A stretch of 64,000 nucleotides of DNA. Source: a virus. The notes beneath the pieces were generated by a model, which ran no database searches, was not told the origin of the DNA, and saw nothing but the letters and a program-made list of their open reading frames with translations. The stretch lies in IMG/VR virus record IMGVR_UViG_3300033067_001533. One strand, written 5' to 3'. Position numbers and translations under genes: made by a program. Every line of letters starts with the position of its first letter. Position 1 is the stretch's first letter. This document shows positions 5,577-23,420 of this stretch, piece after piece.

Positions 5577-5578
5577 TC

Positions 5579-9319: not shown

Positions 9320-9638
9320 ATTTATATTAAAAATTAATCCTGACTTACACTTCTGTTTTTATCGTCATCTTCTGACTTTTTTGTTCTAAATTGATATAGT
9401 GGTCCTCTGCCTCCAATAGTTGAAGAGCTTTCATTAACTATTTCGGCAACTGGTTTTGTTGGAACCTCTTTAATTACTTCCTTTACTACTTCAACTGGTT
9501 TTTCAACGTGTATTGTTTTAATTTCAGGTTCAGTTTCCACATTAGATATTACGTCAATTTCATATGGAAGTTCATCAAGACCATCTCCGACAGTTGCATC
9601 AAGTTCTGACTTTAATTCAACTTCATCGCCAATAGGTT

Positions 9639-10160
9639 CTAGTTTAGTTTTTTTTTTGGATGATTAATTTCTTCTGAAATCACATCTAAATCTTCAACTC
9701 TGATTGGATCTGTGTCACTCTCCGGTTTAATATAATCTACTAATGATTTAATAAATCCTAATGCTACAAGCGGTAAGATTGCTCCTGAAACTGCAGCCAA
9801 TAATCTTTTTTGAGCGATTGGTTCCCATTCTACCAGATTAAATAATTCAACCCAACCTTGATAATCTTTAATATGCACATATGCATAGTACATGTTACCC
9901 TGCATTTGCATTGCAGTAATTACAATGAATAAGGACCATACCATGGTTTTATTCATTTTGTCAAGGGTAATTAATGCTGCAAGAGATGCTGCTGCTCCTA
10001 ATTCAAATCCAATCGCAAGTGAAATAGCTAACCAATCAGGATTTGACAATTTAAAAAAGTCAATTACGTGAATAGTTGAGATAATACTCACTAATAGGTA
10101 CAAGGATACAAATGTTCCAATTATAAAAGCATTAACTGCCTTACTCTTTGATGTCTTCAT
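9639..10160 (-). CDS. membrane protein with ~4 TM helices (holin-like candidate)
   Basis: Four hydrophobic stretches; close to the endolysin. Confidence 0.3.
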   Translation of the reverse strand: MKTSKSKAVNAFIIGTFVSLYLLVSIISTIHVIDFFKLSNPDWLAISLAIGFELGAAASLAALITLDKMNKTMVWSLFIVITAMQMQGNMYYAYVHIKDYQGWVELFNLVEWEPIAQKRLLAAVSGAILPLVALGFIKSLVDYIKPESDTDPIRVEDLDVISEEINHPKKKLN

Positions 10161-10355
10161 TGTTTTCTTTATTTTTATAAAATACTCTATTAACTAAAAG
10201 ATCTGGATTGTTTAATTCTTGCTCTCGGCCTTTACAACCACAATCATTATAGCCAAGTAGTTGTGCGATTTTATCGGCAGCAACATCAGCCTTTAAGATT
10301 TTAGCAACTTTGGCAATATCACTGCCAAACCCTTCTGATCTTTTTTCAATAGCCA

Positions 10356-10643
10356 TTATTTAGATTCTAAATCTTTTATTTCTTTTTCAATTTGTGTTTG
10401 TCTTTGTACATCTAGAATTCTTCTATCAGTTGCCTGAATCATTCTTTTCTCAGCCTTTAATCCTTCAATTCTAAGATCAGTTGCTGTTGGTAAAGAATCG
10501 ATTGTAAGTTTTTCTTTACGGATTTCTTTTTTAACTATCGTTAATTCCGAATCAATTGAACAAGATTTGAACCACGTTAATAATAGAAGTACTAAGATTA
10601 ATTTAGTGCCATGTTTTTCTAGAAATAAATTTAATTTTTCCAT
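10356..10643 (-). CDS. N-terminal TM / lipobox-like + coiled-coil protein (spanin-like candidate)
   Basis: LVLLLLTWFKSC hydrophobic/Cys N-terminus followed by charged coiled-coil-like segment. Confidence 0.25.
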   Translation of the reverse strand: MEKLNLFLEKHGTKLILVLLLLTWFKSCSIDSELTIVKKEIRKEKLTIDSLPTATDLRIEGLKAEKRMIQATDRRILDVQRQTQIEKEIKDLESK

Positions 10644-10674
10644 AATTTGTTTATTTTTAATTTTTACTATATAT

Positions 10675-11745
10675 TTATCTATTGTTTATTTCATTGATTT
10701 TTTCAGGTGTTAATGCCTTTAAAAATTCAACAAATAATTTGATACAATTTTTAACGTCAGCTTTATTGGCCATTTCGCATGTAGTGTGCATATATTTTAA
10801 TGGAGTTGCCAAAATTGCAGTTGGTGTATTTTCTAAAAAGAATGCCATTGTATCGTTTCCATAAGATCCTACTGTTAGTTGAACTGGAATCTTTTTCTCT
10901 CCTGCAACCTCTCTTAACATTTTGTTAATTTTTCTATGGTTTTGTGCAGTATACTCTAAACATGGACCTTTTCCTCCAACATTATCACCATCTTTTGCCT
11001 TGTCGATTTTAGGTGTATTTGTATTGTGACAAACATCATGCACCAACGCCAAATCTGCCTTTAATTTTTTAGCAATCATTTTAGCACCATATAAACCAAC
11101 CTCTTCTTGTACTGAATTTACAACATGTAAATTATATGGTAATGCAATTCCTTCTTCTACTATTTTTCTTAAAGCCTCTGCAATAATATAACCACCGATT
11201 TTATTATCTAATGAGCGCCCTACATAATAATCTCCAATCTCTTCTAATTGAGTATCGAATGTAATTAAGTTCCCAATCTCCACGCCTGCCTCTATAACAG
11301 CTTCTTTATCTTTAAGACCCATATCAACCCATAGCTCTTGTTGTTCATATCCTCTTGATGTATATTCATCTCTAGTATGTATTGCAGGCCATCCAAAAAG
11401 TCCTCGCAATTTCTTGCCATCATGTGTATGGATAATTACAGTTTTTGAAGGTGCAATCATATTATCTGAACCGCCATGTCTTTTTACTCTGATCATTCCA
11501 TCACTTTCAATGTGTGTAATAATCCATGCAATTTCATCACAATGCGCTTCAATTACAACATTGTATTTGGAATCTTCGGTATGTACTGTTTCAAGTGTTG
11601 CAACTGCAGTTCCGTATGCATCAACAGATACCCTATGTACCAGTGGTCTTACATAATCAATCCATATTTTTTGACCTTCAGTCTCTTGTGCAACTGGCGA
11701 GTATGCATTTAAATAATTGTAGAGAAATTTACGATTTGCTTTCAT
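10675..11745 (-). CDS. M42-family metallo-aminopeptidase (FrvX/CelM-like)
   Basis: 356 aa with IEAHCDEIAW (HxDE metal site) and overall M42 layout. Confidence 0.65.
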   Translation of the reverse strand: MKANRKFLYNYLNAYSPVAQETEGQKIWIDYVRPLVHRVSVDAYGTAVATLETVHTEDSKYNVVIEAHCDEIAWIITHIESDGMIRVKRHGGSDNMIAPSKTVIIHTHDGKKLRGLFGWPAIHTRDEYTSRGYEQQELWVDMGLKDKEAVIEAGVEIGNLITFDTQLEEIGDYYVGRSLDNKIGGYIIAEALRKIVEEGIALPYNLHVVNSVQEEVGLYGAKMIAKKLKADLALVHDVCHNTNTPKIDKAKDGDNVGGKGPCLEYTAQNHRKINKMLREVAGEKKIPVQLTVGSYGNDTMAFFLENTPTAILATPLKYMHTTCEMANKADVKNCIKLFVEFLKALTPEKINEINNR

Positions 11746-11746
11746 T

Positions 11747-12400
11747 TTAAAAATTTGTTTCGTTAGTTTTATATTTGTTGTGATATTCTACGATTTTATC
11801 TCTGGCCTCTAATGCAGTATCTACTATTCTAAACAATCCTAAGTCCTTTTCGCTAATCATTCCGTTTTCAACAGCAGTATCTTTTAACCATTGGATTAAT
11901 CCACTCCAATATTCCTTACCAACGAGTACAATAGGATATTTAATGTTATGTCCACATTGTGCAAGTGTAACTGCTTCAAAAAATTCATCAAGAGTTCCAA
12001 GACCTCCTGGAAATACTACAAAGCCTTGTGAATATTTAAGGAACATTACCTTTCTTGTAAAGAAGTATCTACATTCAACCCCAAGGTCAACATACTGATT
12101 CATTCCAGCTTCGAACGGTAATTCAATACCAATTCCAATGGATTTACCACGAGACTCCTTAGCACCTTGGTTTGCAGCTTGCATAATACCTGGACCTCCT
12201 CCTGTAATTACACCAAATCCTTCTCCACTAATTAATGAACCAAATTTTCTTGCCTCTTCATACCATTTACTTCCCTCCTCTGTTCTTGCACTTCCAAATA
12301 CTGAAATACATGCATCAAGTTCGCTAAATATATCAAATCCTTTTGTAAATTCTCCCTGGATTCTTAAAATCTGCCAGGCATCTTCCGCTTTATTTATCAT
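11747..12400 (-). CDS. LOG-family protein (Rossmann-fold nucleotide-binding; cytokinin riboside 5'-monophosphate phosphoribohydrolase-like / nucleotide N-glycosidase)
   Basis: VITGGGPGIMQAANQGA and VVFPGGLGTLDEFFEA match the LOG GGGxGxM and PGGxGTxxE motifs. Confidence 0.75.
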   Translation of the reverse strand: MINKAEDAWQILRIQGEFTKGFDIFSELDACISVFGSARTEEGSKWYEEARKFGSLISGEGFGVITGGGPGIMQAANQGAKESRGKSIGIGIELPFEAGMNQYVDLGVECRYFFTRKVMFLKYSQGFVVFPGGLGTLDEFFEAVTLAQCGHNIKYPIVLVGKEYWSGLIQWLKDTAVENGMISEKDLGLFRIVDTALEARDKIVEYHNKYKTNETNF

Positions 12401-13133
12401 TATATTGTTTTAATCGTTTCATAAATTCTTTAAAATAGTGTTTCATATCATTGTATGTCATTTTAAATATCTGTGGTTTATCTTCGGTTTCAGATGCCAT
12501 CCAAATTTCGCAACCCTGTGGAACAATTCCAGTTCTCTCAAAGAATGCAACTGAATATCCTGCAACCTGTATAAAATAATCTTCAATCCACTCATCTCGT
12601 TTGGGCTTTCTACTATTTTTATAATCAATAATTAAAACTCCTCTATCATGCGTTCTTGAAGCATTATCCAATGTACCTGCATATCCACGCTTTGACCATA
12701 TAAATTTTTCAGCAGCAAGTACCTCTTCAATTCTATCAAAAAATTCATCATGATGATTCCAAAACTTCATGAAAAATTCCCATCCTGCATTTAACCAAAC
12801 ATCTCCTAATGGATCAGCATTAAACTGATTAATCTCTTCATCTGTTGATGCAATATTCTTTAACTCATGTAAACGTTCAGTTGGAGTACCCTTAAGACCT
12901 TTATACAATTCAATAAGTCGATGCATAATTGTACCTCTGTTCATTGATAGATTTGAGATTCTGTCTGCCTCTTCATGTCCAACCTTGTTTCTCCATTCAT
13001 CAAGACCTCTCTTGTCTTTGGTTTCTCCTAAGATTGTTGTCATACTTGGAAAAACTCCAACCAGTTCTCCATCAACTGTAACCTTATAATGTCTTAATCC
13101 ATTAATTTCAACACGTTCAATATGTTCGCTCAT
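12390..13133 (-). CDS. putative PD-(D/E)xK-fold nuclease
   Basis: GTLDNASR...VLIIDYK resembles the D...(D/E)xK catalytic core; weak. Confidence 0.35.
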   Translation of the reverse strand: MSEHIERVEINGLRHYKVTVDGELVGVFPSMTTILGETKDKRGLDEWRNKVGHEEADRISNLSMNRGTIMHRLIELYKGLKGTPTERLHELKNIASTDEEINQFNADPLGDVWLNAGWEFFMKFWNHHDEFFDRIEEVLAAEKFIWSKRGYAGTLDNASRTHDRGVLIIDYKNSRKPKRDEWIEDYFIQVAGYSVAFFERTGIVPQGCEIWMASETEDKPQIFKMTYNDMKHYFKEFMKRLKQYNDK

Positions 13134-13555
13134 ATAAAGGATTCAATTATCCATTTAAACATAAATACTGATAGAGTGATAATACCAGCAAATGTAATAT
13201 TTCTTAAAAATGAAATTAAATTAAAATAATCGTTCTCAGGATAGAGAACAACCAAGAATTGGTCTGTATTTGGAATTTTACTTATTTCAGGATATGATAG
13301 ATCTGAGAGACCATATTTCATTAAGACCTCATTTATAGGTCCAAGTTCCTGAAAAACAATAGATTGTTGTATCATTTCGGGTTGAGTTCTAAACTCTTCT
13401 TTGATTGAAAGAACCCCATAGATTCTGCCAATCCAATCAACTCTTAAATTTGCAGCATTAAGTTCAGGTTCAATACTTTTTACTGCTTTGTAGTATTTTC
13501 TTGTAATCCACGCCTCTTTAATAAATCGAGGCCAAAATAGTAATATATCTTTCAT
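13130..13555 (-). CDS. hypothetical protein with C-terminal TM
   Basis: ORF track. Confidence 0.4.
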   Translation of the reverse strand: MKDILLFWPRFIKEAWITRKYYKAVKSIEPELNAANLRVDWIGRIYGVLSIKEEFRTQPEMIQQSIVFQELGPINEVLMKYGLSDLSYPEISKIPNTDQFLVVLYPENDYFNLISFLRNITFAGIITLSVFMFKWIIESFI

Positions 13556-13607
13556 GTTAACGTAATTTAGTATTTATATTAAAAGTAGAGAGTTTGTTTC
13601 ATAAAAA

Positions 13608-13636
13608 ATGGGACCGAAGTCCCATTAGTGTGTTGA
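13608..13636 (-). terminator. rho-independent terminator ending the tRNA cluster 1 transcript
   Basis: Minus strand GGGAC-TTCG-GTCCC followed by ATTTTTTAT. Confidence 0.55.
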
Positions 13637-13791
13637 TTAGAAGGTCACCGATATCACCTTCAGTGGTAACTTTATATACCTGTAATAGTATAAAGGTTTC
13701 GAGTTGTTTTACGTCTCGTTCTGAAAGACATGACTACTAAGTAATCCCGCACGATGTTACTTTGCCTTGAACGCGATTCGGTTTTAAGAAG

Positions 13792-13863
13792 CGGTCTATG
13801 AGAGAATCGAACTCTCATCTCTACCGTGACAGGGTAGCATCCTAGCCGTTGAACGAATAGACC
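13792..13863 (-). tRNA. tRNA-Asp (GTC)
   Basis: Hand-folded cloverleaf: acceptor GGTCTAT/ATAGACC, anticodon stem CTACC/GGTAG with loop CTGTCAC, T arm GAGAG-TTCGATT-CTCTC. Confidence 0.75.
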
Positions 13864-13867
13864 ATGG

Positions 13868-13952
13868 CGGAAGATGTAGGATTCGAACCTACGGTACCTT
13901 GCAGTACAACAGTTTTCAAGACTGCCGCGATCGACCACTCTGCCAATCTTCC
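13868..13952 (-). tRNA. tRNA-Ser (TGA), type II
   Basis: Acceptor GGAAGAT/ATCTTCC, anticodon loop CTTGAAA, long variable arm, T arm GTAGG-TTCGAAT-CCTAC. Confidence 0.7.
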
Positions 13953-13960
13953 ATTTATAG

Positions 13961-14040
13961 TACCCAGGGCGGGACTTGAACCCGCAAGCTTTCGCACACG
14001 AGTTTAAGTCGTGCATGTTTACCAGTTTCATCACCTGGGT
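13961..14040 (-). tRNA. tRNA-Leu (TAA), type II
   Basis: Acceptor ACCCAGG/CCTGGGT, anticodon stem CACGA/TCGTG loop CTTAAAC, long variable arm, T arm GCGGG-TTCAAGT-CCCGC. Confidence 0.7.
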
Positions 14041-14121
14041 GGTTTAATATTTACAGGATAACTTTGTTTGAGTTTGCAGATCAATTTTGTTAATTTGCTG
14101 AACGTATCCTTTAAAATATCG

Positions 14122-14193
14122 TGGAGGATAGGAGATTCGAACTCCTGTCTCCGCCGTGCAAGGGCGGTGCTAAGCCATCTCAGCTAATCCCCC
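14122..14193 (-). tRNA. tRNA-Ala (TGC) with G3:U70
   Basis: Acceptor GGGGGAT/ATCCTCC (G3-U70 identity pair), anticodon stem CCGCC/GGCGG loop CTTGCAC, T arm AGGAG-TTCGAAT-CTCCT. Confidence 0.75.
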
Positions 14194-14254
14194 AATAACA
14201 GGTTCCATTTTCCTTTGACTAGTGTGTCTACCAATTTCACCACTCTCCAACAAG

Positions 14255-14345
14255 TTGGGAGGTAGGACTCGAACCTACACGTCTTTCGACACCAGTTTCT
14301 CTTATAGAATTTTAATTGCTGTAAGGAACCTTTAACGATTTAATA
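14255..14345 (-). tRNA. tRNA-like element (canonical T arm GTAGG-TTCGAGT-CCTAC, but no standard 5' acceptor/D arm found); possible pseudogene or atypical tRNA
   Basis: T arm plus 3' CTCCCAAC; upstream part could not be folded into a cloverleaf. Confidence 0.3.
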
Positions 14346-14577
14346 TGTATAAGAACATTGATAGTATATATCATTTAAAATTTTGCGATATGAGAAACTA
14401 GCCTATTCCATTTAAAACTCATATCACTTCGGAATCCAACCGCTCTAATCTCAAGTTCAGCTTTAGAACTACTGCTTATCGTTATTGACTAGTGACCTTT
14501 ATCTATATATTTGTCCACCACTTTAGCGCCAGAGTGAATAAGTCGTTAACGCCTACTCGAACAGTTTTTTAAATCAA

Positions 14578-14754
14578 TTAGGCTTTTTTAGCCTCAGATA
14601 CTTTAACTCTTACGTCTTGCGCTAAGTTTTTAATAGTTTGCATTGCCTTACGAACACGAGTTCCAGCTGCACCATTTCCTTTTTCTTCAAATTTAGCTGC
14701 ATCTTCTCTAACTGAATCTACTGCCGCTGCGATTTGGTTTAATAAATCTTCCAT
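14578..14754 (-). CDS. histone H1-like (Hc1-type) small DNA-binding protein, 58 aa (below ORF-track cutoff)
   Basis: Hand translation MEDLLNQIAAAVDSVREDAAKFEEKGNGAAGTRVRKAMQTIKNLAQDVRVKVSEAKKA; KGN-AA--RVRK core resembles Hc1/Bacteroidota histone H1 N-terminal domain. Confidence 0.5.
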   Translation of the reverse strand: MEDLLNQIAAAVDSVREDAAKFEEKGNGAAGTRVRKAMQTIKNLAQDVRVKVSEAKKA

Positions 14755-14832
14755 TGTTTTTGTTTTAAATTAGTATTATTATGATTATTATATAGGTGAA
14801 ACTTGTATTGTTTCAATTATTTTTTAGTATTT

Positions 14833-15078
14833 TTATGATGTTTTCCAAACATGTTTTGTTTTTGTACCATCGACATATGTTGCTATGATTTTTTCATCTT
14901 TGTTTTCGGCATATGCCTTGATAGTTCTAATGTAGGCCGTTGGGTTTTTTACATCAGTATACACCTTAACTCTATTTTCGTAATGAACTTCAACTGTACT
15001 GCCGCCTTCAGTTAGTGACAATTCATTGGTTCTATATTCTCTACCAACTATGAATTTATTATTGCTTTCCATTTTCAA
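14833..15078 (-). CDS. hypothetical protein
   Basis: ORF track. Confidence 0.4.
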   Translation of the reverse strand: MKMESNNKFIVGREYRTNELSLTEGGSTVEVHYENRVKVYTDVKNPTAYIRTIKAYAENKDEKIIATYVDGTKTKHVWKTS

Positions 15079-15301
15079 TTACTTTTTTAATTCTATTAAA
15101 TAATTTTTCAAGGTCTTCAATTCCATTTATAGACCATTTGTCGGTTTTAAGAATAAAGAAACAATCATTATCTCGATCAATACCTAATGAACTTTTTGCT
15201 TCTATTTCCAAGAATTCATATTCATCTTGATCTGATAAACAATTTGCATCTTGTGAAAATCTAAAGGTTGCTTCCTCTAATAATGTACCTTGCTCTTCCA
15301 T
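15059..15301 (-). CDS. hypothetical acidic protein
   Basis: ORF track. Confidence 0.4.
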   Translation of the reverse strand: MEEQGTLLEEATFRFSQDANCLSDQDEYEFLEIEAKSSLGIDRDNDCFFILKTDKWSINGIEDLEKLFNRIKKVIENGKQ

Positions 15302-15308
15302 AATTATT

Positions 15309-15911
15309 CTATTTAAATTGATCTTTTTGTTTCAATATATGGTGTAATGGTATTAAATTATTTTCAGATTCAAATCGTTCTGGATGCCATTGCACTGCCC
15401 AAATATTTAATTTACTATCTTCAATTCCTTCTGGTATATTTCCACCATCAACCGATCTGTATGTGACTTTAAAATTCTTTGCAACCTTGTGACAATATTG
15501 ATGATGTCTACTATTAACCATAAATGTATTGCCAAATTCATCCTGTACCCTATGATATTGTGATACTCTTTCTCCATGGTCATCGTCATCCTCAAATGAA
15601 TCCAATCTATGTGATTCTGTGATAGTGTTATTTAAACTTTTAACAATACCACCAAAATAAACATTTAAGATTTGCATACCCCGACAGATACCAATAATTG
15701 GTTGGCCATTTTCAATAGCGCTTCGTATCCAACTAAATTCTTGCATGTCTCTCTTTCGATTAATACCAACATCTGCACCACCACATAGAAGTAATGGTTG
15801 ATTTATTACCTTGATGTTTGGATTTAATAGAGTGTGACTGATATCATATCTATTTAGCCACTGTATGTATTGTTCTAATTCAATAGAACCCTTTGGAGGC
15901 GCTATAAACAT
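15309..15911 (-). CDS. class I glutamine amidotransferase-like / C26 gamma-glutamyl hydrolase-like protein
   Basis: IIGICRGMQILNV (nucleophile Cys in G-x-C-x-G-x-Q) and WAVQWHPE (His/Glu of triad). Confidence 0.65.
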   Translation of the reverse strand: MFIAPPKGSIELEQYIQWLNRYDISHTLLNPNIKVINQPLLLCGGADVGINRKRDMQEFSWIRSAIENGQPIIGICRGMQILNVYFGGIVKSLNNTITESHRLDSFEDDDDHGERVSQYHRVQDEFGNTFMVNSRHHQYCHKVAKNFKVTYRSVDGGNIPEGIEDSKLNIWAVQWHPERFESENNLIPLHHILKQKDQFK

Positions 15912-16123
15912 TATTTTTTCTTTTTATCCTGTCCTGGCTCTTCTAATATTCTTAAATAAGACTCTTTATCGCTGATACAATCTTCACAATATGGTGCATA
16001 ATATTCATCGTGATTTGTTGCAACTCCTCTGTGCATTTTTCTTACAACAGTATACATTTCCTTAGTGACAAATTCATCTAAACAATTTGTGCATACGGTG
16101 GTTCTTACTACTCTCTTTGCCAT
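15911..16123 (-). CDS. small zinc-ribbon protein
   Basis: CTNC ... CEDC pairs. Confidence 0.4.
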   Translation of the reverse strand: MAKRVVRTTVCTNCLDEFVTKEMYTVVRKMHRGVATNHDEYYAPYCEDCISDKESYLRILEEPGQDKKKK

Positions 16124-16128
16124 CTTAA

Positions 16129-16371
16129 TTATTTTGTATAATTTCTATCTAATAAATCATGCCATGTTAAAACTCCAACCAGATGTGGAAGTGAACTTGA
16201 ATCAGTATGCATTTCCCAATCTCCATCAAAGTTTGTGAATTGTATTTGATAAAAGTTTTCATGAATAGTTACTATACACTTTTCATTTGCCCATTTATTG
16301 ATACCTACGTTTTTAAATGAGTTTCTTTCTAAGAAAGAATCTACATAAGGATTAATAATCTCTTCTGCCAT
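16129..16371 (-). CDS. hypothetical protein
   Basis: ORF track. Confidence 0.4.
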   Translation of the reverse strand: MAEEIINPYVDSFLERNSFKNVGINKWANEKCIVTIHENFYQIQFTNFDGDWEMHTDSSSLPHLVGVLTWHDLLDRNYTK

Positions 16372-17266
16372 CGTAAACTGCTTTTACTGTTGGAAATCTT
16401 AATGAAACGGTTCCTTTATCGTTTTGTGTTTCTTCAAAGTACTGTACAACTATTTCCTTTCCAAGAATTTTCTCAGGATGTTCAAAATAATATCTCTTTT
16501 GCTCGTGTGAAAATCCACTACCAACTTGCACTCTATTACCTTTATGTTCTATTACAACATTTCGCATCATCATCTCTTCCACCTCTACACCATCAACAAT
16601 AACTCGATTGATTGCATTTTCAATGTCAACTACAATATATTCTGCGTCGTAAAATTGTTTTACCTTTAAAACATCATTACTACGCTTTCCTTGGTATGGA
16701 GCATCTTTACGCAACATAAGTCCTTCCCATCCGTTTTGTTTTGCTTCAGTAATTTTAACCATTAACATTCTTTCGTCAAGCAGAATTGTTTGTTCTAAAT
16801 AACCAATGTTCTTGAATTCTTTTTCATAGAATAAATTGTCTAATTGAACATTTCTATGTGAAAATGGTCTGGTTCCTTCTTTATTGATAAATTCTTCAAT
16901 TGTTAAAATATCAAACATATAAAAGAAAGGATTTTTAATCGTATGGTCTTTGCGCTTGATTTCTTTAATGATACCTTGGAAATTCTCATTTCCATTCTCA
17001 TCCATCATACAAATTTCGCCATCAATAACCATATTCTTTAGTCCTAATGAAATAATTTCAGCATCTAAATTCTTTAGGGTCATGAATTCATTTCCAGCAC
17101 GTGAAAAATATTTAGGTTCTCCATTCTCATCAATGATACAAATACAGCGACAATTATGTACCAATATATTATTCGCAAAGAAATTTTCATTATCTTCTAT
17201 TTGAAGGTCATATTTATCATAACCTTTATTTAATTTTTTAATTGATTTAATTCTAATATTTTCCAT
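16352..17266 (-). CDS. C-terminal split-intein fragment (IntC, ~38 aa) fused to C-terminal ~266 aa of ATP-dependent DNA ligase (adenylation motifs III-V + OB domain)
   Basis: Starts MENIRIKSIKKLNKGYDKYDLQIEDNENFFANNILVHN|CRC, resembling DnaE-type IntC (…VYDIGVERDHNFALKNGFIASN|C); downstream VIDGEI, FYMFDIL, EGLMLRK, LKVK, LRFPTVK ligase motifs. Confidence 0.75.
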   Translation of the reverse strand: MENIRIKSIKKLNKGYDKYDLQIEDNENFFANNILVHNCRCICIIDENGEPKYFSRAGNEFMTLKNLDAEIISLGLKNMVIDGEICMMDENGNENFQGIIKEIKRKDHTIKNPFFYMFDILTIEEFINKEGTRPFSHRNVQLDNLFYEKEFKNIGYLEQTILLDERMLMVKITEAKQNGWEGLMLRKDAPYQGKRSNDVLKVKQFYDAEYIVVDIENAINRVIVDGVEVEEMMMRNVVIEHKGNRVQVGSGFSHEQKRYYFEHPEKILGKEIVVQYFEETQNDKGTVSLRFPTVKAVYDGRRDY

Positions 17267-18600
17267 AATTTTTCACTATTTAGTTCTTTAATATCCGATT
17301 CCCATAGAACAATAACCTTAAATCCAAATGACTCTATTTGATTATTTCTTTTTTTATCATATTCCCAAATCTCTTTAACCATGATTGCTCCTCCCCATTT
17401 GTGAATAATATCATTTTCTTTATACTTTAAGGGATTTCCATGCCAATAATCTCCATTAATTTCAATTACAACGTTTAAACTTGGAATAATAATATCGGGT
17501 CTAGGATTATATCCATCGACTGTAAAATCATATGTGTTATCTTCAGATGTAAAATCAATACTTAATTCGTTTAATAACGATTCTACTATAATATGAGGTT
17601 TAGATTTTCTTCCTGAGTTAGTATATCTGCCAGGAATACTAACCGCATTTAAAACTCCATATTTTTCAAATATCGTATTAGTTATTTTATCTTTAATTTC
17701 TTTAGATTGAAATACATTACTAACTCCATATTTTTCAATTATAGTGTTATTCCTCTCATGAAATTTATAACTATTTTTGCCTAAAACATTAATATCTCCA
17801 TATTTTTCTAAGCATGTTTCTTTGTATAATGTTCTACACGAATCCATTTTTGAGGCATCTTGTATATTTCTAGTTTCATATCCAAATTCCTTTAGTAAAT
17901 GAATTATATAACCTGCACCTACTCCAGGATAATTAAGCGTTTTTGAAATCTGATATGCCGATAACCCATTAATAAAATACATTTTATACAAATATTCTTT
18001 AGTTATCAAATCTTTATATGATTTAATATAATCTAAAGAAATTTTACATTTTGCAGCATGTCCTTTTAATTGAGGTTTTCTTTCAAATTTTTTACCACAA
18101 ATACACGTAAATTCAAAATTTGAAACATTAATTTCTTTTTTTTGATAAAATTTACATTTATTATGATGTAATCCTTTTCCTATTTTACTACTAAAAGATC
18201 TATCACATCCAATTCCTTCGCACTTATACATAACTAACTTATTTTTATTTAAGTTATATATCTTTAGTCTTCGAGTAAAAAACTAGATGGTAATTAATAA
18301 TTTTTCATCTCCATTTAATTCGTCAGTTCTTCTCCAACATCTTAATTCAGGTAGCCATACTCTATGATTTCCAGTCAATTTTATTTTTTTACCATTTTCT
18401 AATTCAATTTCAAACCATTCTGAATTATTTTCATTAATATCATCTAAATTAACCATCCAATTTTTAATGGTTTTAAATTCTATTTTATTAGAATTAATGT
18501 TGTATGATTTAATTTTGCCTTCAACTTTATTATCTACCACTTCCTTTATAGATATCTTTGTACCATCTTCAAATTCTATAATAGTATCTGCATGTAAACA
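17153..18600 (-). mobile_element. split intein (IntN + free-standing HE gene + IntC) inserted after motif I of the DNA ligase gene ('fractured gene' arrangement)
   Basis: Boundaries computed from ORF-track coordinates: Cys1 of IntN is residue 165 of ORF 18283..19092; HN|C junction is residue 38/39 of ORF 16352..17266. Confidence 0.65.
17230..18231 (-). CDS. free-standing homing endonuclease between the split-intein halves: N-terminal C2H2-like zinc fingers + C-terminal Vsr/DUF559-like PD-(D/E)xK nuclease domain
   Basis: CDRSF..HHNKC and CICGKKF..GHAAKC fingers; VVIEINGDYWHGNP resembles Vsr FV(D/H)GCFWH core; position between IntN and IntC ORFs. Confidence 0.55.
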   Translation of the reverse strand: MYKCEGIGCDRSFSSKIGKGLHHNKCKFYQKKEINVSNFEFTCICGKKFERKPQLKGHAAKCKISLDYIKSYKDLITKEYLYKMYFINGLSAYQISKTLNYPGVGAGYIIHLLKEFGYETRNIQDASKMDSCRTLYKETCLEKYGDINVLGKNSYKFHERNNTIIEKYGVSNVFQSKEIKDKITNTIFEKYGVLNAVSIPGRYTNSGRKSKPHIIVESLLNELSIDFTSEDNTYDFTVDGYNPRPDIIIPSLNVVIEINGDYWHGNPLKYKENDIIHKWGGAIMVKEIWEYDKKRNNQIESFGFKVIVLWESDIKELNSEKLWKILELNQLKN

Positions 18601-19092
18601 TCCATCGAGTTTTCTTGAAACAAACCAAATATCATTATTAAGGTCGACCTTCTTTGCCATTTTCTCATCATAAGAATTTGCCAATGCAACGTCAAATGTT
18701 GGAATCAGTCCAGGAATCACCTTATTAATCATTGAAGTAGTCGATCTGGTTTTAAGGTTTCTATCAATGATATTAAAAATTAACTCCTCATAGTCCTTGT
18801 TTGCCTCTATAAAACCATTAACACAACTAATCGCAAGGTGCCCTGTAATAAATCGATCATTTAAATCATCAAGTAGTGTTGATAAATCTGAATAAGAATA
18901 TTTAACTAAATGTGAATTCTTTTTACAATTTTCTGAAGTAACTCCATATTGTTTAAAAGTATTGTAAGTGTAGTTAAGAGCCTTACATACTGATTCATTA
19001 TCTGCATACTTTTTAAGTATGTTTAATTTGTCAGTGTTTGAATTTGTCTGATTCGACGCATTAACAAAGTCTTGAATGTCTTGTAATTTCAT
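18283..19092 (-). CDS. N-terminal part of ATP-dependent DNA ligase (through KxDG adenylation motif I) fused to N-terminal split-intein fragment (IntN, ~105 aa)
   Basis: ...FVSRKLDG|CLHADTIIEFEDG...: catalytic-lysine motif KLDG followed by Cys1 and CLxxDT (block A); LTGNH (block B); ORF ends ~105 aa after Cys1, the length of known IntN fragments. Confidence 0.75.
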   Translation of the reverse strand: MKLQDIQDFVNASNQTNSNTDKLNILKKYADNESVCKALNYTYNTFKQYGVTSENCKKNSHLVKYSYSDLSTLLDDLNDRFITGHLAISCVNGFIEANKDYEELIFNIIDRNLKTRSTTSMINKVIPGLIPTFDVALANSYDEKMAKKVDLNNDIWFVSRKLDGCLHADTIIEFEDGTKISIKEVVDNKVEGKIKSYNINSNKIEFKTIKNWMVNLDDINENNSEWFEIELENGKKIKLTGNHRVWLPELRCWRRTDELNGDEKLLITI

Positions 19093-19099
19093 ATTGTTT

Positions 19100-19172
19100 T
19101 AATTTAGTATGTAAATATAACTATAAATCATGATATATTAAACCTTTACTTTAAAAAGTTATTAACAATTTT
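19100..19172 (-). promoter_or_regulatory. conserved promoter element (GTTATTAACA module) upstream of the ligase N-fragment gene
   Basis: tagtatgtaaatataactataaatcatgatatattaaacctttactttaaaaagttattaacaatttt. Confidence 0.45.
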
Positions 19173-19709
19173 AAGTATGTTGTGTAGATGACTATTTAAT
19201 GATATTGTTGTGGATTTCTTAACATTCCAAATCTGATAAACCTTAATGTGTTTAAATTTAAATATTTGAGGAAACACCATCAACCTTAAACGTATCCACA
19301 GGATGTTTAGAGACTTCCACCTGATTGATTTAGGTGATGTTGATGTGACAATCACTCCAAGTTTTTTGTCCTCTAAGAGACCCTTACCATCCTTAAATGC
19401 AAACCCATTAATAAAAACTTGGTCAATAAATCCTTCAACTAAAGGAGACAATGATAACCATCTGCTCGGTGAAATTATCCAAATATGTTGAGATGTTTTT
19501 ATCAAATGTCGATATGATTTTGCAAATGCATTATCATTTATTTTAGAAAGATCTCCAATAAAAAATGATGGATTATAACCATCTAAATATAGGTCAACCA
19601 CGTTAACCTGATGGCCATGTCGCTTATAGTTCTGTTGAATGGTTTTTACAAGCTTTGTGTTTTCAAAGGAGTTACGATCAGGATGTGCTATAACTATAAG
19701 ACAATTCAT
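19146..19709 (-). CDS. flavodoxin-like fold NAD(P)H-dependent oxidoreductase (NQO1/MdaB-like)
   Basis: N-terminus MNCLIVIAHPDRNSFENTKL resembles MKxLIVxAHPExxSFN of Flavodoxin_2 family. Confidence 0.45.
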   Translation of the reverse strand: MNCLIVIAHPDRNSFENTKLVKTIQQNYKRHGHQVNVVDLYLDGYNPSFFIGDLSKINDNAFAKSYRHLIKTSQHIWIISPSRWLSLSPLVEGFIDQVFINGFAFKDGKGLLEDKKLGVIVTSTSPKSIRWKSLNILWIRLRLMVFPQIFKFKHIKVYQIWNVKKSTTISLNSHLHNILKIVNNFLK

Positions 19710-19713
19710 TACT

Positions 19714-20046
19714 TTAAAAAAGTTTACTAAAAATATTTAAACAAAACATTTTAAATCTTCCTGGTTTATAACCCCATAACATATTTTCCTTTGTATCTAA
19801 GACCCAATCATATAATGGTGTACTTATATAAAATAAATCCCAATTAGTCCAATGTATCTTAGTTATTTCGACACCGTTTGGTAATCTAAATTCAATTGCT
19901 AAAAGTGAATATGGACGGTGGTCTTTAATTACCTCACAGAATGAAAATCCCCAGCAAGCATCACCATCATGTAAATAAACCTCAAGTAGATTAAACTTAA
20001 GGTTCCATTTTCGGGTGTTCCAACTTATTTTTTGCAATATTCCCAT
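19714..20046 (-). CDS. hypothetical protein
   Basis: ORF track. Confidence 0.4.
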   Translation of the reverse strand: MGILQKISWNTRKWNLKFNLLEVYLHDGDACWGFSFCEVIKDHRPYSLLAIEFRLPNGVEITKIHWTNWDLFYISTPLYDWVLDTKENMLWGYKPGRFKMFCLNIFSKLF

Positions 20047-20047
20047 T

Positions 20048-20728
20048 TTATGCCTTATAACATTGTCTAAGCAACATTACAACATCCATTGCATCTTCAA
20101 CAGCGTTGTGAGTTACAACACCATCGATTCCTGCACGTTTTTTACATTCATCAAGACTTGGAATCGATTCATCATTAATCCAATCAACAAATAGGATTCC
20201 TGGGTCTAATACTCTGCTACGAATTGAAAATACTTGTTTCCATCTAGGTAGTTTTTCTAAGAATTTCTTGTCAAATCCTGCAAAATTCTTACCTGCACAG
20301 TTTAAATAAACCTTTGGCATATTTGAGGTTAGTATTGGATATGGTTTACCGTTTACAATTTTAATTTGTTTATTTAAAAAGTCAGGGTCAACTGGAACCA
20401 ATCCATTATCATAACAAAATTGGAAAAGAGCTTCAACAACCTCATCTTCATGATAGAATTTAGCACCAAAAGATTCCTCAACCTCTTGTTTTAATTCTTC
20501 AGTTCTTGCTTCAGAATAATCCTTTATCGCTTGAATTAAATCCCTATTTAAGTTCAGTGCGAAGATACTTCCGTAAACACTTTCACGTTTAATAACAGCA
20601 TGAAACTTTGGTAACTCTTCAAATGGAAGGGGATTCAAAGTGTCTTCAATTACTGCTCCTATTGAAAGGATTTGATTAAAATCTACATCTAATCCGGTGG
20701 TCTCGACATCGATCGATATATATTTCAT
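20048..20728 (-). CDS. DEDDh 3'-5' exonuclease (oligoribonuclease/RNase T/DnaQ-like)
   Basis: Exo I motif ISIDVETTGLD near N-terminus; Exo III H-x4-D in THNAVEDAMD. Confidence 0.65.
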   Translation of the reverse strand: MKYISIDVETTGLDVDFNQILSIGAVIEDTLNPLPFEELPKFHAVIKRESVYGSIFALNLNRDLIQAIKDYSEARTEELKQEVEESFGAKFYHEDEVVEALFQFCYDNGLVPVDPDFLNKQIKIVNGKPYPILTSNMPKVYLNCAGKNFAGFDKKFLEKLPRWKQVFSIRSRVLDPGILFVDWINDESIPSLDECKKRAGIDGVVTHNAVEDAMDVVMLLRQCYKA

Positions 20729-20730
20729 GT

Positions 20731-20988
20731 TTATCTATTTTGTGGGTTCATTGCATGGTAATTAGCCAATACATATTTTTGTACTCTCCTAGATGCTTTT
20801 GAAGTTCCATTTAACATGGCTTCGTGTGCTTCTTTAAAAGACAAATTAACATATCTTAAATGTCTGTATAATTCTCGGTGAATTGGATATGGTTCGTTTG
20901 ACCATTCATTTCCATCCTCTGATATGTACATTCCTTGTACTTCTCTAATATCAGAAAAATCTGGTGCTGTTCCTGTATAAAATGCCAT
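20731..20988 (-). CDS. hypothetical protein
   Basis: ORF track. Confidence 0.4.
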   Translation of the reverse strand: MAFYTGTAPDFSDIREVQGMYISEDGNEWSNEPYPIHRELYRHLRYVNLSFKEAHEAMLNGTSKASRRVQKYVLANYHAMNPQNR

Positions 20989-21012
20989 AATTATTTTATT
21001 TTAAGTTATATC

Positions 21013-21372
21013 TTAAACCTTTGAAAAGTTTACAAATTCGGTTGCCTTCTTCGCATCATTAAATGTTTTTAATGCGCTGTTAAAAGATACCTTTCTGCCG
21101 CTTTTTGTGGTTAAGTGTTGAAATCCAGAATCTTCAAATCGATCATCAGTTCCCCATACCAAATAGTAGTGATAGCTAATTTCTCCTCTATTATTACGAG
21201 ATGTTTTAAACGACATTTCACCATAATTATGACGATATGTCGACTCGTATGGTTTTTTACTTGACTTTGTCAATGCAATTACCTTTGGTAAATCTTTACC
21301 ATTTTCAGTTCTTTGGAAGCTCATTAAAACTTCTACAATTCCTAAATCTTTGTGACTAATAAATCTTTCCAT
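21013..21372 (-). CDS. hypothetical protein
   Basis: ORF track. Confidence 0.4.
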   Translation of the reverse strand: MERFISHKDLGIVEVLMSFQRTENGKDLPKVIALTKSSKKPYESTYRHNYGEMSFKTSRNNRGEISYHYYLVWGTDDRFEDSGFQHLTTKSGRKVSFNSALKTFNDAKKATEFVNFSKV

Positions 21373-21593
21373 TATTCTTCTAGTTTTTCGTATTTATATT
21401 TACCTTTAATCAGTGAATTTAGTGAAATTCCTTGTGATTTGGCGTTTGCAAATTCTTGATAAACCTCTTCAGGTATCTCAGTGTATCGGTAAGTAGCATG
21501 CACAAAAACCACATAAAGGTTTTTAGACTCATATTCATATGTCGAAGCTTTAATTGTAGACGAATCATAAATATTTGTTTGTGATTTTATCAT
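21372..21593 (-). CDS. small protein, possibly KTSC-domain
   Basis: YVVFVHATYRYTEIPEEVYQEFANAKSQGISLNSLIKGKY resembles KTSC pattern; weak. Confidence 0.3.
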   Translation of the reverse strand: MIKSQTNIYDSSTIKASTYEYESKNLYVVFVHATYRYTEIPEEVYQEFANAKSQGISLNSLIKGKYKYEKLEE

Positions 21594-21807
21594 GCTTGTT
21601 CTGTTTTTTGTAAATGTTTTTCTTTTAACACTTTAACTAAATCTGTGTAGGTTTCTACTGCACTATTTGCATCAACACTTTTTGCCTTAATTAATTGTGA
21701 TGTTTTTACATCTCTAATCATAATAACGTCAACGTCTAATTCAATTGATAATCCTCCGATTATATTTTTCATGTTTATTTAGTTAAATTGTAAATATTAA
21801 GAAATTT

Positions 21808-22227
21808 TTATTGTTTGTCTAAATCTTTTTTAATTTGATTTAAAGATTTTTGAATGTTACTGGTAATATCCTTTTCCATTCTATTTCGCGTATCTTCCAT
21901 TTTATTGTCAAAGGCATCTAATGTTTTATTTAAGATTCTACCTCCAATTGGAATTGTATAACTATATACGTGATTAATAATTTGAATATAACTTGAACTA
22001 ATAATTACGAAAATTTCTTCACTATCTAATTTAATGTATCTCTTACCACTTAGTGGTGACATTAAAAGAACTGAACCTGGTTTTTCAATAAGTTTTTTGC
22101 AAATTAAATACGCTGCAGTTTGTTGACTATCAACCTCTCCTTTAAATGTTGAATCAAATGTTGATTTTCTCCAAATGTAAAATTTTTGTTTAAATCTCTT
22201 AATACGATGCTTTAAATTTACTTTCAT
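21808..22227 (-). CDS. hypothetical protein
   Basis: ORF track. Confidence 0.4.
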   Translation of the reverse strand: MKVNLKHRIKRFKQKFYIWRKSTFDSTFKGEVDSQQTAAYLICKKLIEKPGSVLLMSPLSGKRYIKLDSEEIFVIISSSYIQIINHVYSYTIPIGGRILNKTLDAFDNKMEDTRNRMEKDITSNIQKSLNQIKKDLDKQ

Positions 22228-22231
22228 TTTC

Positions 22232-22438
22232 TTAGATTTTAGTTAGTGGAATCCATTTACCCTCTTTTAATTTATGAGGTATGCCATTAATTGTTTTAAA
22301 TATACTATGTGGATTGATGTGATTTTCATCCAACTTTGCTCTACTTAGTGTATTTTCAAAATCTTCAGCAGTAGTTCTACGTCTTACAATTGAAGGGTCT
22401 ACTTTCTTTTTTCTGCGAGGTCCTGTATAATATGCCAT
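22232..22438 (-). CDS. hypothetical basic protein
   Basis: ORF track. Confidence 0.35.
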   Translation of the reverse strand: MAYYTGPRRKKKVDPSIVRRRTTAEDFENTLSRAKLDENHINPHSIFKTINGIPHKLKEGKWIPLTKI

Positions 22439-22472
22439 ATAGATGTTATATAAAAAATTAAACGATTGTTTC

Positions 22473-23117
22473 TTATTCGTGGTGGTCCTTAAATGTAAAC
22501 ATTGATTTGATAGGTTGCTTGTCTAGAATAGAAAGAACCTCGCGTAATTCAATTGGATTAAAATTATTTCCATCAACTCCAACATCCATCATTTTTCCAG
22601 GACCAACTCTTTTGCCCTTTGACAAGTGAACATGTCCATGCAAATGCTTAACACCTTGTCCCATGTCTTGCCAACTTGCAATTGGAAAGTGACATAGCAC
22701 AAATCTGTGTTTTTGGGCTGGTAGGTTTTTTGCCTTTGCCTGCTCAACAATTGTTAAGTAACACATATCATGCACACTTTTAAAAAGTCCTTTGACCCCT
22801 TCTTTATCATTTTTGATATGATGGTCATGGTTGCCTAAAATTAAGTGTACATTTTTACATACAATAAGATTTCTAAACTCTTCTATTTTTTCAAATCCAC
22901 CAAAACTCCAGTCACCTAGGTGAATCAAGATATCATCTTCTCCTACTGTATTGTTTATACCTTCAACAATTGAACTGTTCATCTGATGTAACGTGTTAAA
23001 CTCACGTGTACCTCTTGAACCATCCCATTCCGATATTCCTCTACAGATATTCGTATGATTATAATGTGTATCTGATGTAAAAAATACTCTTTGTCCTTTT
23101 TCTACTACGATTTTCAT
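22473..23117 (-). CDS. calcineurin-like metallophosphoesterase
   Basis: FFTSDTHYNH (DxH), LGDWSFGG (GD), ILGNHDHH (GNH[DE]) motifs. Confidence 0.65.
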   Translation of the reverse strand: MKIVVEKGQRVFFTSDTHYNHTNICRGISEWDGSRGTREFNTLHQMNSSIVEGINNTVGEDDILIHLGDWSFGGFEKIEEFRNLIVCKNVHLILGNHDHHIKNDKEGVKGLFKSVHDMCYLTIVEQAKAKNLPAQKHRFVLCHFPIASWQDMGQGVKHLHGHVHLSKGKRVGPGKMMDVGVDGNNFNPIELREVLSILDKQPIKSMFTFKDHHE

Positions 23118-23128
23118 TGTTCTTATTT

Positions 23129-23329
23129 TTAGTATAAACTTTCATGGGCTTTGATAGAGATAAATTCTCCATCTTCATTTAAAACGTCCAATTCATCATC
23201 TGTCATTTCGCGATCTTCATAATCTGCCGATTCAATATATGCATCACAAAAATCGGGGTAATCTTGCATATCTAAACCTCCGATTAAAACGTTACTAATT
23301 TTACTGTAATCTAATTTAATGTTTGCCAT
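23129..23329 (-). CDS. hypothetical acidic protein
   Basis: ORF track. Confidence 0.35.
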   Translation of the reverse strand: MANIKLDYSKISNVLIGGLDMQDYPDFCDAYIESADYEDREMTDDELDVLNEDGEFISIKAHESLY

Positions 23330-23341
23330 AATGTACTTATT

Positions 23342-23420
23342 TTAATTTGATATGTAAATATAACTATAATATTTGAACCATGAAAACTTTTTTACAATTA
23401 TTTTCAAAAGTTATTAACAG
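23342..23420 (-). promoter_or_regulatory. conserved promoter element (GTTATTAACAG module)
   Basis: ttgatatgtaaatataactataatatttgaaccatgaaaacttttttacaattattttcaaaagttattaacag. Confidence 0.5.

Follow-up and report, generated by a model that had tools for sequence, protein, structure and literature searches.

How does a phage obtain a working DNA ligase from a gene that is broken inside its own active-site motif, with an endonuclease gene lying in the gap? The question is raised by a locus in the virus record IMGVR_UViG_3300033067_001533, a stretch of 64,000 nucleotides (nt) that is called the window below; coordinates of the locus are given on the minus strand. Three consecutive minus-strand open reading frames (ORFs), at 19092..18283 (269 amino acids, aa), 18231..17230 (333 aa) and 17266..16352 (304 aa) in the ORF listing of the window, encode in turn the first part of an ATP-dependent DNA ligase with the N-terminal half of a split intein (IntN), a free-standing homing endonuclease (HEN), and the C-terminal intein half (IntC) with the rest of the ligase. 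The locus fits the definition of a fractured gene given by Dassa et al. (2009) and is situated in the ligase of an uncultured, low-GC, tRNA-rich phage. The overall picture, in which trans-splicing would reconstitute the ligase and the Vsr-like HEN would carry the cassette from allele to allele by homing, is given a probability of about 0.85.

The divided ligase

The first ORF reads ...FVSRKLDG/CLHADTIIEF...KLTGNHRVW...LLITI up to its stop (in fuller form ...NDIWFVSRKLDG/CLHADTIIEFEDG...KIKLTGNHRVWLPELRCWRRTDELNGDEKLLITI and the stop; here and below a slash marks the junction of ligase extein and intein, or the corresponding point in an uninterrupted ligase). The last ORF begins MENIRIKS...NFFANNILVHN/CRCICIID (MENIRIKSIKKLNKGYDKYDLQIEDNENFFANNILVHN/CRCICIIDENGE...), with Cys39 as the +1 residue. 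The middle ORF, which includes ...VVIEINGDYWHG..., begins and ends with a start and a stop of its own. It lies in the frame of the N ORF, from which a TAG stop and a 51-nt spacer separate it, and is one frame off from the IntC ORF. All five parts (both exteins, both intein halves and the HEN) were compared with the window by tblastn, and neither the intein nor the HEN nor the ligase was found in it a second time.

The two outer ORFs complement each other as parts of a single enzyme. The N piece matches phrog_114 (ATP-dependent DNA ligase) over profile positions 86–250 (E=3e-23) and the C piece over positions 250–499 (E=8e-45), and the two pieces meet at one profile position. The Pfam profiles PF01068 (DNA_ligase_A_M) and PF14743 (DNA_ligase_OB_2) are above cutoff on the C piece. 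Virtual splicing gives a product of 430 aa and 49.95 kDa, the same length as uninterrupted alleles, in which motifs I, III, IV, V and VI stand in order (KLDGCR at 161, DGE at 208, EGLM at 307, LKVK at 326 and RFP at 416). The full motif set is found in one chain only after virtual splicing, and motif I itself is divided between two ORFs, with the adenylation lysine on one polypeptide and the motif-I arginine and remaining motifs on the other. A break at this place in the adenylation motif, after KLDG and before CR, should make activity strictly dependent on splicing.

The spliced product aligns in one piece by tblastn with annotated ligases of cultured phages, over 95–99% of its length and at about 31–33% identity; the nearest of these, from Bacillus siphophages, are likewise about 31–33% identical. 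It also aligns through the junction KLDG/CRCICII with the solved ligases 6RAU and 6RAR and with T4 ligase 6DT1, in the case of 6RAU over residues 48–422. Megablast of window 15000–21000 against 50,697 phage records gave no match, which indicates a phage without a close cultured relative. JGI gives the pieces no ligase name (they appear as 'hypothetical protein', or for the N-half as 'intein/homing endonuclease'), and the ligase would therefore be overlooked in functional inventories of such phages.

The intein halves

Both intein halves exceed their curated NCBIfam cutoffs, IntN with 39.8 bits on intein_Nterm (TIGR01445; cutoff 24.5) and IntC with 26.3 bits on intein_Cterm (TIGR01443; cutoff 15.6). 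In a sequence search of the PDB, joined IntN and IntC matched the solved NrdJ-1 intein 8UBS (E=1.6e-11, query residues 17–142), with weaker matches to 4O1R (2.6e-6), to 7CFV (4.4e-5) and to the DnaB, DnaX, Npu DnaE and gp41-1 inteins. The residues of a class 1 intein are all present, namely C165, T240-G-N-H243, H37-N38 of the C ORF and the +1 residue C39. C165 and T240-G-N-H243 are invariant across 24 split N-halves, all of which end at one split point, and HN/C is invariant in 8 loci. Homology to solved inteins supports indirectly that the assembled halves would adopt a HINT fold. A ligase intein of this kind was found in none of the 50,697 GenBank phage records; the closest IntN relatives in that collection lie in UvsX-like recombinase and helicase genes, at 27–40% identity.

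The endonuclease between the halves

The HEN (38.7 kDa) consists of beta-beta-alpha zinc-finger-like units at about residues 2–26 and 41–62, helical DUF7487 repeats, and a C-terminal Vsr/EDxHD-type domain at about residues 205–330. In Pfam and NCBIfam scans PF24308 (DUF7487) was above cutoff on this protein and the Vsr and DUF559 matches were below it; the thresholds of the Vsr families were failed with 36.4 bits against 97.85 for TIGR00632 and 19.0 against 27 for PF03852. The protein matches phrog_3339, 'homing endonuclease'. An AlphaFold2 (AF2) model of the HEN has a mean predicted local distance difference test score (pLDDT) of 91.9, and Foldseek of this model against solved structures returned only 1CW0, 1VSR and 3R3P at E<=1e-3, each with probability 1.00. 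A PDB search by sequence only gave marginal Vsr matches (E about 0.1) and missed 3R3P. An alignment of 73 HEN homologues shows no variation at D246, E257 or H264 and at least 90% conservation at D261 and D292. Residues D246, E257, H264 and D292 were mapped onto Vsr D51, F62, H69 and D97 by eye, from the alignment and Dassa et al. (2009).

The zinc-finger-like units and DUF7487 repeats may be the functional equivalent of a DNA-binding region made of NUMOD or helix-turn-helix (HTH) motifs; NUMOD families gave no match on the HEN in the profile scans, and no direct comparison was made with NUMOD profiles. The finger spacing within HEN residues 1–62 (window 18046–18231) is CxxxxC...HxxxC in one unit and CxC...HxxxC in the other. 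The HENs of two related loci, L001 and L002 (296 and 295 aa), begin at the second unit and are without the first finger. Finger number thus varies in one HEN lineage, and it might relate to the breadth of the target site.

JGI names homologues of this HEN as Vsr repair enzyme or 'G:T-mismatch repair endonuclease'. A role as Vsr repair enzyme was ruled out for the HEN of the window, which fails the curated Vsr cutoffs though its fold is related.

Recurrence of the arrangement

The exact C-half protein occurs in one NCBI assembly (GCA_050655955.1) and three Logan assemblies (SRR32380194, SRR32380190 and SRR31616043), all four of them independent, with the same three-ORF neighbourhood wherever the contig extends far enough. 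The loci L001 (about 83% aa identity) and L002 (about 79%) also have the three parts, in other relative frames: 3,3,2 in the window, 3,2,1 in L001 and 3,1,3 in L002. L001 has a spacer of 50 nt and an overlap of 37 nt, L002 a spacer of 43 nt and an overlap of 28 nt, and the IntC start of L002 is TTG. Including these two, the three-ORF layout is present in L001, L002, L058, L061, L067, L069 and L071, with spacers of 43–70 nt and overlaps of 8–37 nt. HEN and IntC overlap by 8–37 nt in eleven other loci, with individual values of 37, 37, 28, 28, 31, 8, 23 and 20 nt, compared with 37 nt in the window. The divergent L058/L059 and L061, whose exteins are 42–48% identical, have the same layout among different neighbouring genes. 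A large protein database holds at least 24 clusters of 267–305-aa proteins made of ligase N-part and IntN, at identities down to 51%, and no long ligase with a contiguous intein was present among the best 120 matches there.

All five parts are under purifying selection. Internal stops are present in none of about 24 N-halves or 8 C-halves. By the Nei-Gojobori method the ratio of nonsynonymous to synonymous change (dN/dS) among the window, L001 and L002, whose synonymous sites are saturated across alleles, is 0.05–0.12 for the exteins, 0.12–0.16 for IntN, 0.07–0.10 for IntC and 0.11–0.30 for the HEN. Values between 0.05 and 0.30 imply that all five parts are maintained as proteins.

The first-pass annotation of the window, made from the DNA alone, had read the locus as a fractured gene with a split intein at ligase motif I and a free-standing HEN, and this structural reading was supported on every point tested. 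Its three ORFs are borne out, all on the minus strand. Its N ORF, with the ligase N-part to KLDG followed by Cys1, CLHADT, LTGNH and an IntN of about 105 aa, agrees exactly with the analysis (Cys1 is residue 165). The profiles above cutoff likewise uphold its C ORF, a 38-aa IntC ending in HN/C before motifs III–V and the OB domain, and both halves exceeded the curated NCBIfam cutoffs in the comparison with intein profiles that it had proposed. The joined exteins do make up a complete ligase, with motifs I–VI in 430 aa as in uninterrupted alleles. Two C2H2-like fingers and a Vsr/DUF559-like core had been read in the middle ORF; two zinc-finger-like units and, by Foldseek, a Vsr fold were found, and the sequence profiles of Vsr and DUF559 stay below cutoff. 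A single frame broken by an indel had been named beforehand as the finding that would overturn the reading; the four assemblies agree with one another, and the frames differ between loci.

Empty sites and movement of the cassette

Uninterrupted versions of the same ligase are found in ten viral contigs (L003–L012), in which N-extein residue 164 is joined in frame to C-extein residue 1. The junction is KLDG/CRCICII in close relatives and KLDG/VRC in the most distant ones, and the Cys at the empty-site +1 position of close relatives indicates that the +1 Cys of splicing is native to this ligase clade. The nearest empty allele, P0014 on contig L057 (sample SRR28031032), encodes an uninterrupted ligase that differs from the spliced product of the window at 3 of 430 aa. 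L057 is collinear with window 8668–23369 and 98–99% identical to it except for three indels, one of which is exactly window 17153–18600, the missing 1,448-bp cassette. The empty-site DNA around the insertion point reads GTGAGCCGTAAATTGGACGGC/TGTCGTTGTATTTGTATC, with the L057 form GTGAGCCGTAAATTGGACGGC/TGTCGTTGTATTTGTATCATT; the flank codons of the window, joined without the intein, read GTTTCAAGAAAACTCGATGGA/TGTCGC.

The differences between the window and L057 are concentrated beside the cassette. The N-extein has 0 mismatches in 473 nt and then 10 synonymous ones in the last 19 nt, which include the codon-family switches TCA versus AGC (Ser) and AGA versus CGT (Arg). In the C-extein 9 synonymous mismatches fall within the first 112 nt, and the 686 nt that follow contain 5. 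Over 29 nt the left flank of the window equals that of an occupied allele, L065. Co-conversion of short donor flanks along with the cassette would be expected to leave tracts of this kind.

The cassette is also much more similar between alleles than the gene that contains it. The exteins of the window and L063 have nucleotide identities of 75.2% and 80.8% (synonymous-site divergence, pS, 0.68 and 0.58), and within the cassette IntN is 98.7%, the HEN 97.1% and IntC 99.1% identical (pS 0.035, 0.067 and 0). The same contrast, with the cassette far closer than the exteins, is seen between the window and L064. Of the 276 pairs formed by the 24 N-halves, 262 show stronger conservation of IntN than of the N-extein. 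When extein DNA is placed in a neighbour-joining tree, each of the three occupied alleles on viral contigs lies in a different sub-clade, with empty alleles as its nearest neighbours; L002, for example, is 94.5–94.7% identical to the empty alleles L005 and L006, and 99–100% around the site. The cassette is thus far younger than the host gene, so vertical inheritance is insufficient and the whole IntN-HEN-IntC unit has recently moved between diverged alleles.

Proposed mechanism and alternative explanations

In the proposed mechanism the ligase would be made as two polypeptides, one of 31.1 kDa (N-extein and IntN) with the adenylation lysine, and one of 35.8 kDa (IntC and C-extein) with the rest of the nucleotidyltransferase domain and the OB domain; neither half should be active alone. 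IntN and IntC would associate as a class 1 HINT domain, and trans-splicing would proceed through Cys1, the block-B Thr and His, the terminal His-Asn and the native +1 Cys. The reaction would release the 430-aa, 49.95-kDa ligase, as made from an uninterrupted allele, together with intein pieces of 12.39 and 4.58 kDa. The HEN, for its part, would cut uninterrupted ligase alleles of co-infecting relatives near the DNA that encodes motif I, and recombinational repair would copy the whole cassette with short flanks into the cut allele. The chemistry of splicing and the activity and target of the HEN are predicted here from conserved residues and homology.

Several observations weigh against this picture. 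Splicing, ligase activity and DNA cleavage are all read from sequence, and AF2 of fused IntN and IntC, run on a single sequence, gave a pLDDT of only 51.7 for the putative HINT fold. Positions +69..+112 of the right flank match neither L057 nor L065, so the true donor is unsampled, and the flank tracts could in principle have arisen when an empty allele converted an occupied one, with loss and not gain of the cassette. Weak constraint on the N-terminal domain of the ligase could explain part of the excess conservation of IntN; the synonymous-site contrast of the window with L063 and L064 argues otherwise. The L002 HEN is 55% identical and its intein halves 79–84%, so the cassette is not always one evolving block. 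Among the expression signals treated below, L002 lacks the spacer hairpin, and scans of 16000–19500 for sigma-70 promoters and intrinsic terminators gave results at chance level.

The three ORFs could be an error of sequencing or assembly, in which one contiguous ligase with a classical intein and an in-frame endonuclease was broken by a false stop and a false frameshift. The N and HEN ORFs do share a frame, merely a TAG and 51 nt apart, the HEN and IntC ORFs are one frame off, and a contiguous intein exists at the same ligase site in another lineage (L068). That intein has a LAGLIDADG and not a Vsr-like domain, however, and an error would have to account for three identical proteins in four independent assemblies, for seven other loci with differing frames, spacers and overlaps, for 24 N-halves that all end at one split point, and for L066, which carries both halves without any HEN; the artefact is already effectively refuted and retains next to no credibility. 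A real but dead gene, in which insertion of the HEN destroyed an intein-containing ligase whose pieces are now decaying while the phage uses the host ligase, is very improbable. Homing endonuclease insertions can inactivate genes, and some loci may be degenerate, as in L060, where the HEN runs in the opposite direction and the 2.2 kb up to the contig end hold no C-half. Decay does not fit with dN/dS of 0.05–0.16 in both exteins and both intein halves at saturated synonymous sites, with the N- and C-halves free of internal stops, or with splicing residues and ligase motifs that are all invariant. Another possibility is that the intein halves are merely a dimerisation handle for a two-chain ligase that works without splicing. 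The fragmented Aeh1 NrdA is described in one source (PMC3045599) as a phage enzyme, fragmented by a homing endonuclease gene, that is assembled without splicing through other interaction domains. In the ligase, non-covalent assembly would leave a HINT domain of 143 residues between G164 and C165 in motif I (KxDGxR), at the adenylation site. Association alone needs none of Cys1, the block-B Thr and His, the terminal His-Asn or the +1 Cys, all of which stay invariant at identities as low as 51%. NrdJ-1, the closest relative with a solved structure, stems from a fractured-gene locus and trans-splices efficiently. A ligase held together by association is accordingly quite unlikely.

These alternatives concern the proteins; a further one concerns the history of the cassette. 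It might be a vertically inherited relic whose HEN no longer homes, with the patchy distribution produced by recurrent precise losses, for instance through recombination with empty alleles. Presence and absence alone cannot be polarised, L066 shows that the HEN can be lost with the split intein retained, and in L002 the HEN has diverged far more than the intein halves. Vertical descent cannot, however, produce a cassette pS of 0–0.07 where the exteins have 0.42–0.68. The derived codons (TCA AGA ... CTC) in the left flank of the window adjoin the cassette and are common to another occupied allele, and a HEN with dN/dS of 0.11–0.30 and invariant catalytic residues does not look abandoned. The relic is therefore considered unlikely; the cassette has spread horizontally as a unit.

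Comparison with described systems

Dassa et al. (2009) have defined fractured genes from 26 metagenomic loci that represent eight enzyme types including 'DNA Ligase' (PMC2677866). The claim of the first-pass annotation that the arrangement had not been described for a phage DNA ligase therefore falls. Their ligase came from one Lake Gatun locus, was most similar to the ligase of phage Felix 01, had a 5'-3' exonuclease gene downstream, and was outside their five fully assembled loci (PMC2677866). The free-standing endonucleases between the halves were GIY-YIG or members of a Vsr-like HEN family, and in 15 loci, commonly but not universally, the 3' end of the endonuclease gene overlapped the IntC start by 6–69 bp (PMC2677866). 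The same authors have reported IntN of 88–105 aa, IntC of 33–54 aa, hairpins before the HEN start, and the late-promoter element TATAAATA in 10 hairpins (PMC2677866). The extra invariant Glu of the Vsr-like/EDxHD family was described by Dassa et al. and Taylor et al. (PMC2677866, PMC3239194), and Taylor et al. (2011) have characterised I-Bth0305I, the prototype of the EDxHD family (PMC3239194). A 2025 preprint names Dassa et al. as the sole report of Vsr-like HENs accompanied by split inteins. The arrangement was published in 2009, so its recurrence is no discovery; this instance is a complete ligase example, and neither complete ligase examples nor evidence of spread seem present in the searchable literature.

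The locus of the window resembles these fractured genes in its host enzyme, in the Vsr-like type of its HEN, and in its adjacent, co-directional halves split at one point. Its IntN of 105 aa, IntC of 38 aa and overlap of 37 nt lie in the ranges of Dassa et al., and a hairpin is predicted before its HEN start. Unlike the Lake Gatun ligase, the locus is complete, its nearest ligases are those of Bacillus siphophages and not that of Felix 01, and an 80-aa ORF and not an exonuclease gene lies downstream. Unlike 10 of the hairpins of Dassa et al., the spacer of the window is without the exact TATAAATA.

Among solved inteins the best match is NrdJ-1 (PDB 8UBS/9OMB), itself the intein of a fractured gene of Dassa et al. 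It has a similar C-terminal motif, ...YDxQ...NFFANDILVHN, and, like the intein of the window, it combines a negatively charged IntN with a positively charged N-terminus of IntC. It differs in its host protein, a class II ribonucleotide reductase, and similarity outside the conserved blocks is moderate; the +1 residue is Cys in the window and Ser in NrdJ-1. Split inteins of the NrdJ-1 and gp41-1 family are widely used in protein engineering, and a new member with a native G/CRC junction could be practical. The Npu and Ssp DnaE inteins (4KL5, 2KEQ) are also natural split class 1 inteins, split between blocks B and F, with a +1 Cys, an IntN of about 100 aa and an IntC of about 36 aa, and their similarity to the intein of the window is weak (E about 6e-3). 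The halves of cyanobacterial DnaE are far apart in the genome and have no endonuclease, whereas those of the window are adjacent with a putatively active HEN between them; the HEN-less L066 represents a step toward the DnaE state.

The HEN shares the Vsr fold with I-Bth0305I (3R3P) and E. coli Vsr (1CW0/1VSR), with TM-scores normalised to the target of 0.55–0.65, as well as the Asp/His/Asp catalytic residues (D246, H264 and D292) and the Glu specific to the EDxHD family (E257). As in I-Bth0305I, the DNA-binding region is N-terminal and the nuclease domain C-terminal. I-Bth0305I belongs to a recA group I intron and has NUMOD/HTH motifs, whereas the HEN of the window is free-standing, with zinc-finger-like units and DUF7487 'KYG' repeats; the sequence identity of 3R3P and this HEN is 18%.

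Other states of the ligase site

The KxDG/CR site is also occupied in very divergent ligases, by a cassette with a Vsr-like HEN, by a split intein without HEN or by a classical intein, and together with the empty alleles four states of the site are known. Inteins of uncultured phages evidently make wide use of ligase motif I as an insertion site. L067, L069 and L071 have the cassette of IntN, Vsr-like HEN and IntC at motif I of ligases that are 27–43% identical to that of the window. These ligases include short ones beginning 'MKLPxLxK...', with N-halves of 194–226 aa; the overlaps in the three loci are 8–23 nt. L066:1-1386 (Ga0070747_1014666) carries the split intein without HEN, its N-half ending at 438 and its C-half beginning at 478. 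The 39 nt between them still contain the 5' part of a window-type spacer and run directly into the IntC start, and the locus looks like a clean deletion of the HEN ORF. In L068:1-2238 (Ga0075122_10019070) a single ORF of at least 745 aa encodes the ligase with a contiguous intein at KLDG/CR, an in-frame LAGLIDADG_2 domain at residues 232–407 (PF03161, E=1.9e-17) and a related C-terminal block, NYFANGILVHN.

With a probability somewhat better than even, this ligase site is a natural system that displays all stages in the life of a fractured gene side by side. If the HEN is active, the site would provide the first population-level demonstration found of a split intein and a free-standing Vsr-like HEN homing as a unit, and, if this is true, a direct test of the model of Dassa et al. 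for the origin of split inteins. With matched empty and occupied alleles and several site states at hand, the history in which a HEN invades an intein, the split intein spreads and the HEN is lost becomes testable.

Two further sets of loci were observed. L060:4001-8026, in the last 8 kb of a 187-kb contig (JGI 3300037086 Ga0334812_000017), has a ligase N-extein with IntN (P0115, 51% identical), a DUF7487/Vsr-like HEN on the opposite strand (4890–5783), and no IntC or ligase C-half in the 2.2 kb to the contig end; either the C-half is elsewhere in the genome, as with split cyanobacterial dnaE genes, or the locus has decayed. In L074–L145 an IntC-like motif, YDxxVxDNHNFFANxILVHN followed by C or S, precedes many exteins and heads a large phage intein family. 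By eye these exteins are ribonucleotide reductase-like, helicase-like, DnaE-PHP-like, terminase-like and RNA-ligase-like. Most have 33–55 aa upstream in frame and are apparently split, and some have 220–570 aa and are apparently contiguous.

Expression signals

The spacer of the window is predicted to form a hairpin with a minimum free energy of -11.5 kcal/mol (z = -2.6). The HEN AUG is paired in spacers of the window type, of L001 and of L061, and partly in that of L058. The resemblance of this predicted hairpin to those of Dassa et al. is suggestive. An exact match to the late-promoter element TATAAATA was not found here. The conserved spacer motif AAGATATATAA was considered as a phage promoter and rejected, as it has 10 matches in the window against 7.8 expected.

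The conserved overlap of HEN and IntC fits an invading element that supplies the start of the downstream half. Translation may be coupled at this overlap, and the hairpin may have a regulatory role. A Shine-Dalgarno-like core precedes only 4 of the 68 ORFs in the window, and leaders are A-rich; the HEN and IntC starts resemble all other starts there. The missing Shine-Dalgarno before HEN and IntC was for this reason rejected as evidence against their translation. The host may be one that is not reliant on initiation led by Shine-Dalgarno sequences, for example a member of the Bacteroidota.

Coordinates of the locus and neighbouring genes

Table 1. Parts of the fractured ligase locus and of its flanks in the window.
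Feature	Position	Strand	Description
Ligase N-extein, residues 1-164	18601..19092	-	N-terminal domain and first half of motif I; ends KLDG, adenylation lysine K161
IntN, 105 aa	18283..18600	-	Cys1 = residue 165; block A CLHADT; block B LTGNH; TAG stop at 18283-18285
IntN-HEN spacer, 51 nt	18232..18282	-	Between IntN stop and HEN start; predicted hairpins, one pairing the HEN AUG
Free-standing homing endonuclease (HEN) gene, 333 aa	17230..18231	-	Two zinc-finger-like units, DUF7487 region, Vsr/EDxHD-type nuclease domain
Overlap of HEN and IntC, 37 nt	17230..17266	-	Same bases encode, in different frames, the HEN C-terminus LWKILELNQLKN (then stop) and the IntC start MENIRIKSIKKL
IntC, 38 aa	17153..17266	-	Ends NFFANNILVHN; block G His-Asn
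Ligase C-extein, 266 aa plus stop	16352..17152	-	+1 Cys and Arg of motif I (CRCICII), motifs III, IV and V, OB domain with motif VI
Left flank tract	18601..18619	-	Ten synonymous differences from L057 in last 19 nt of N-extein
Right flank tract	17041..17152	-	Nine synonymous differences from L057 in first 112 nt of C-extein
Mobile cassette IntN + HEN + IntC, 1,448 bp	17153-18600	-	Inserted inside ligase motif I (KLDG/CR)

Two small ORFs of L057 are missing from the window, where their positions would be at about 19714–19725 and 16129–16135. One (L057 3657–4040, 113 aa) has no family match, and the other (L057 6192–6497, 103 aa) has a weak DUF2500 match below cutoff; the two may be further small mobile or accessory cassettes. 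All ORFs of at least 180 aa in the window are on the minus strand, except one nested ORF with a TTG start. The window also has 24 tRNA genes in two minus-strand clusters, at 13791–14193 and 52390–57675, which include two tRNA-Met, three tRNA-Leu and two tRNA-Arg as well as an odd tRNA-Tyr call with anticodon ATA at 55086–55163. The auxiliary genes include a nicotinamide phosphoribosyltransferase (26565–28031, E=1e-196), a ribose-phosphate pyrophosphokinase (36575–37453), a homologue of tRNA-His guanylyltransferase (Thg1-like, 29962–31014) and a weak RimK-like match (59593–60537). These genes suggest an NAD+ salvage module together with tRNA repair in a tRNA-rich phage.

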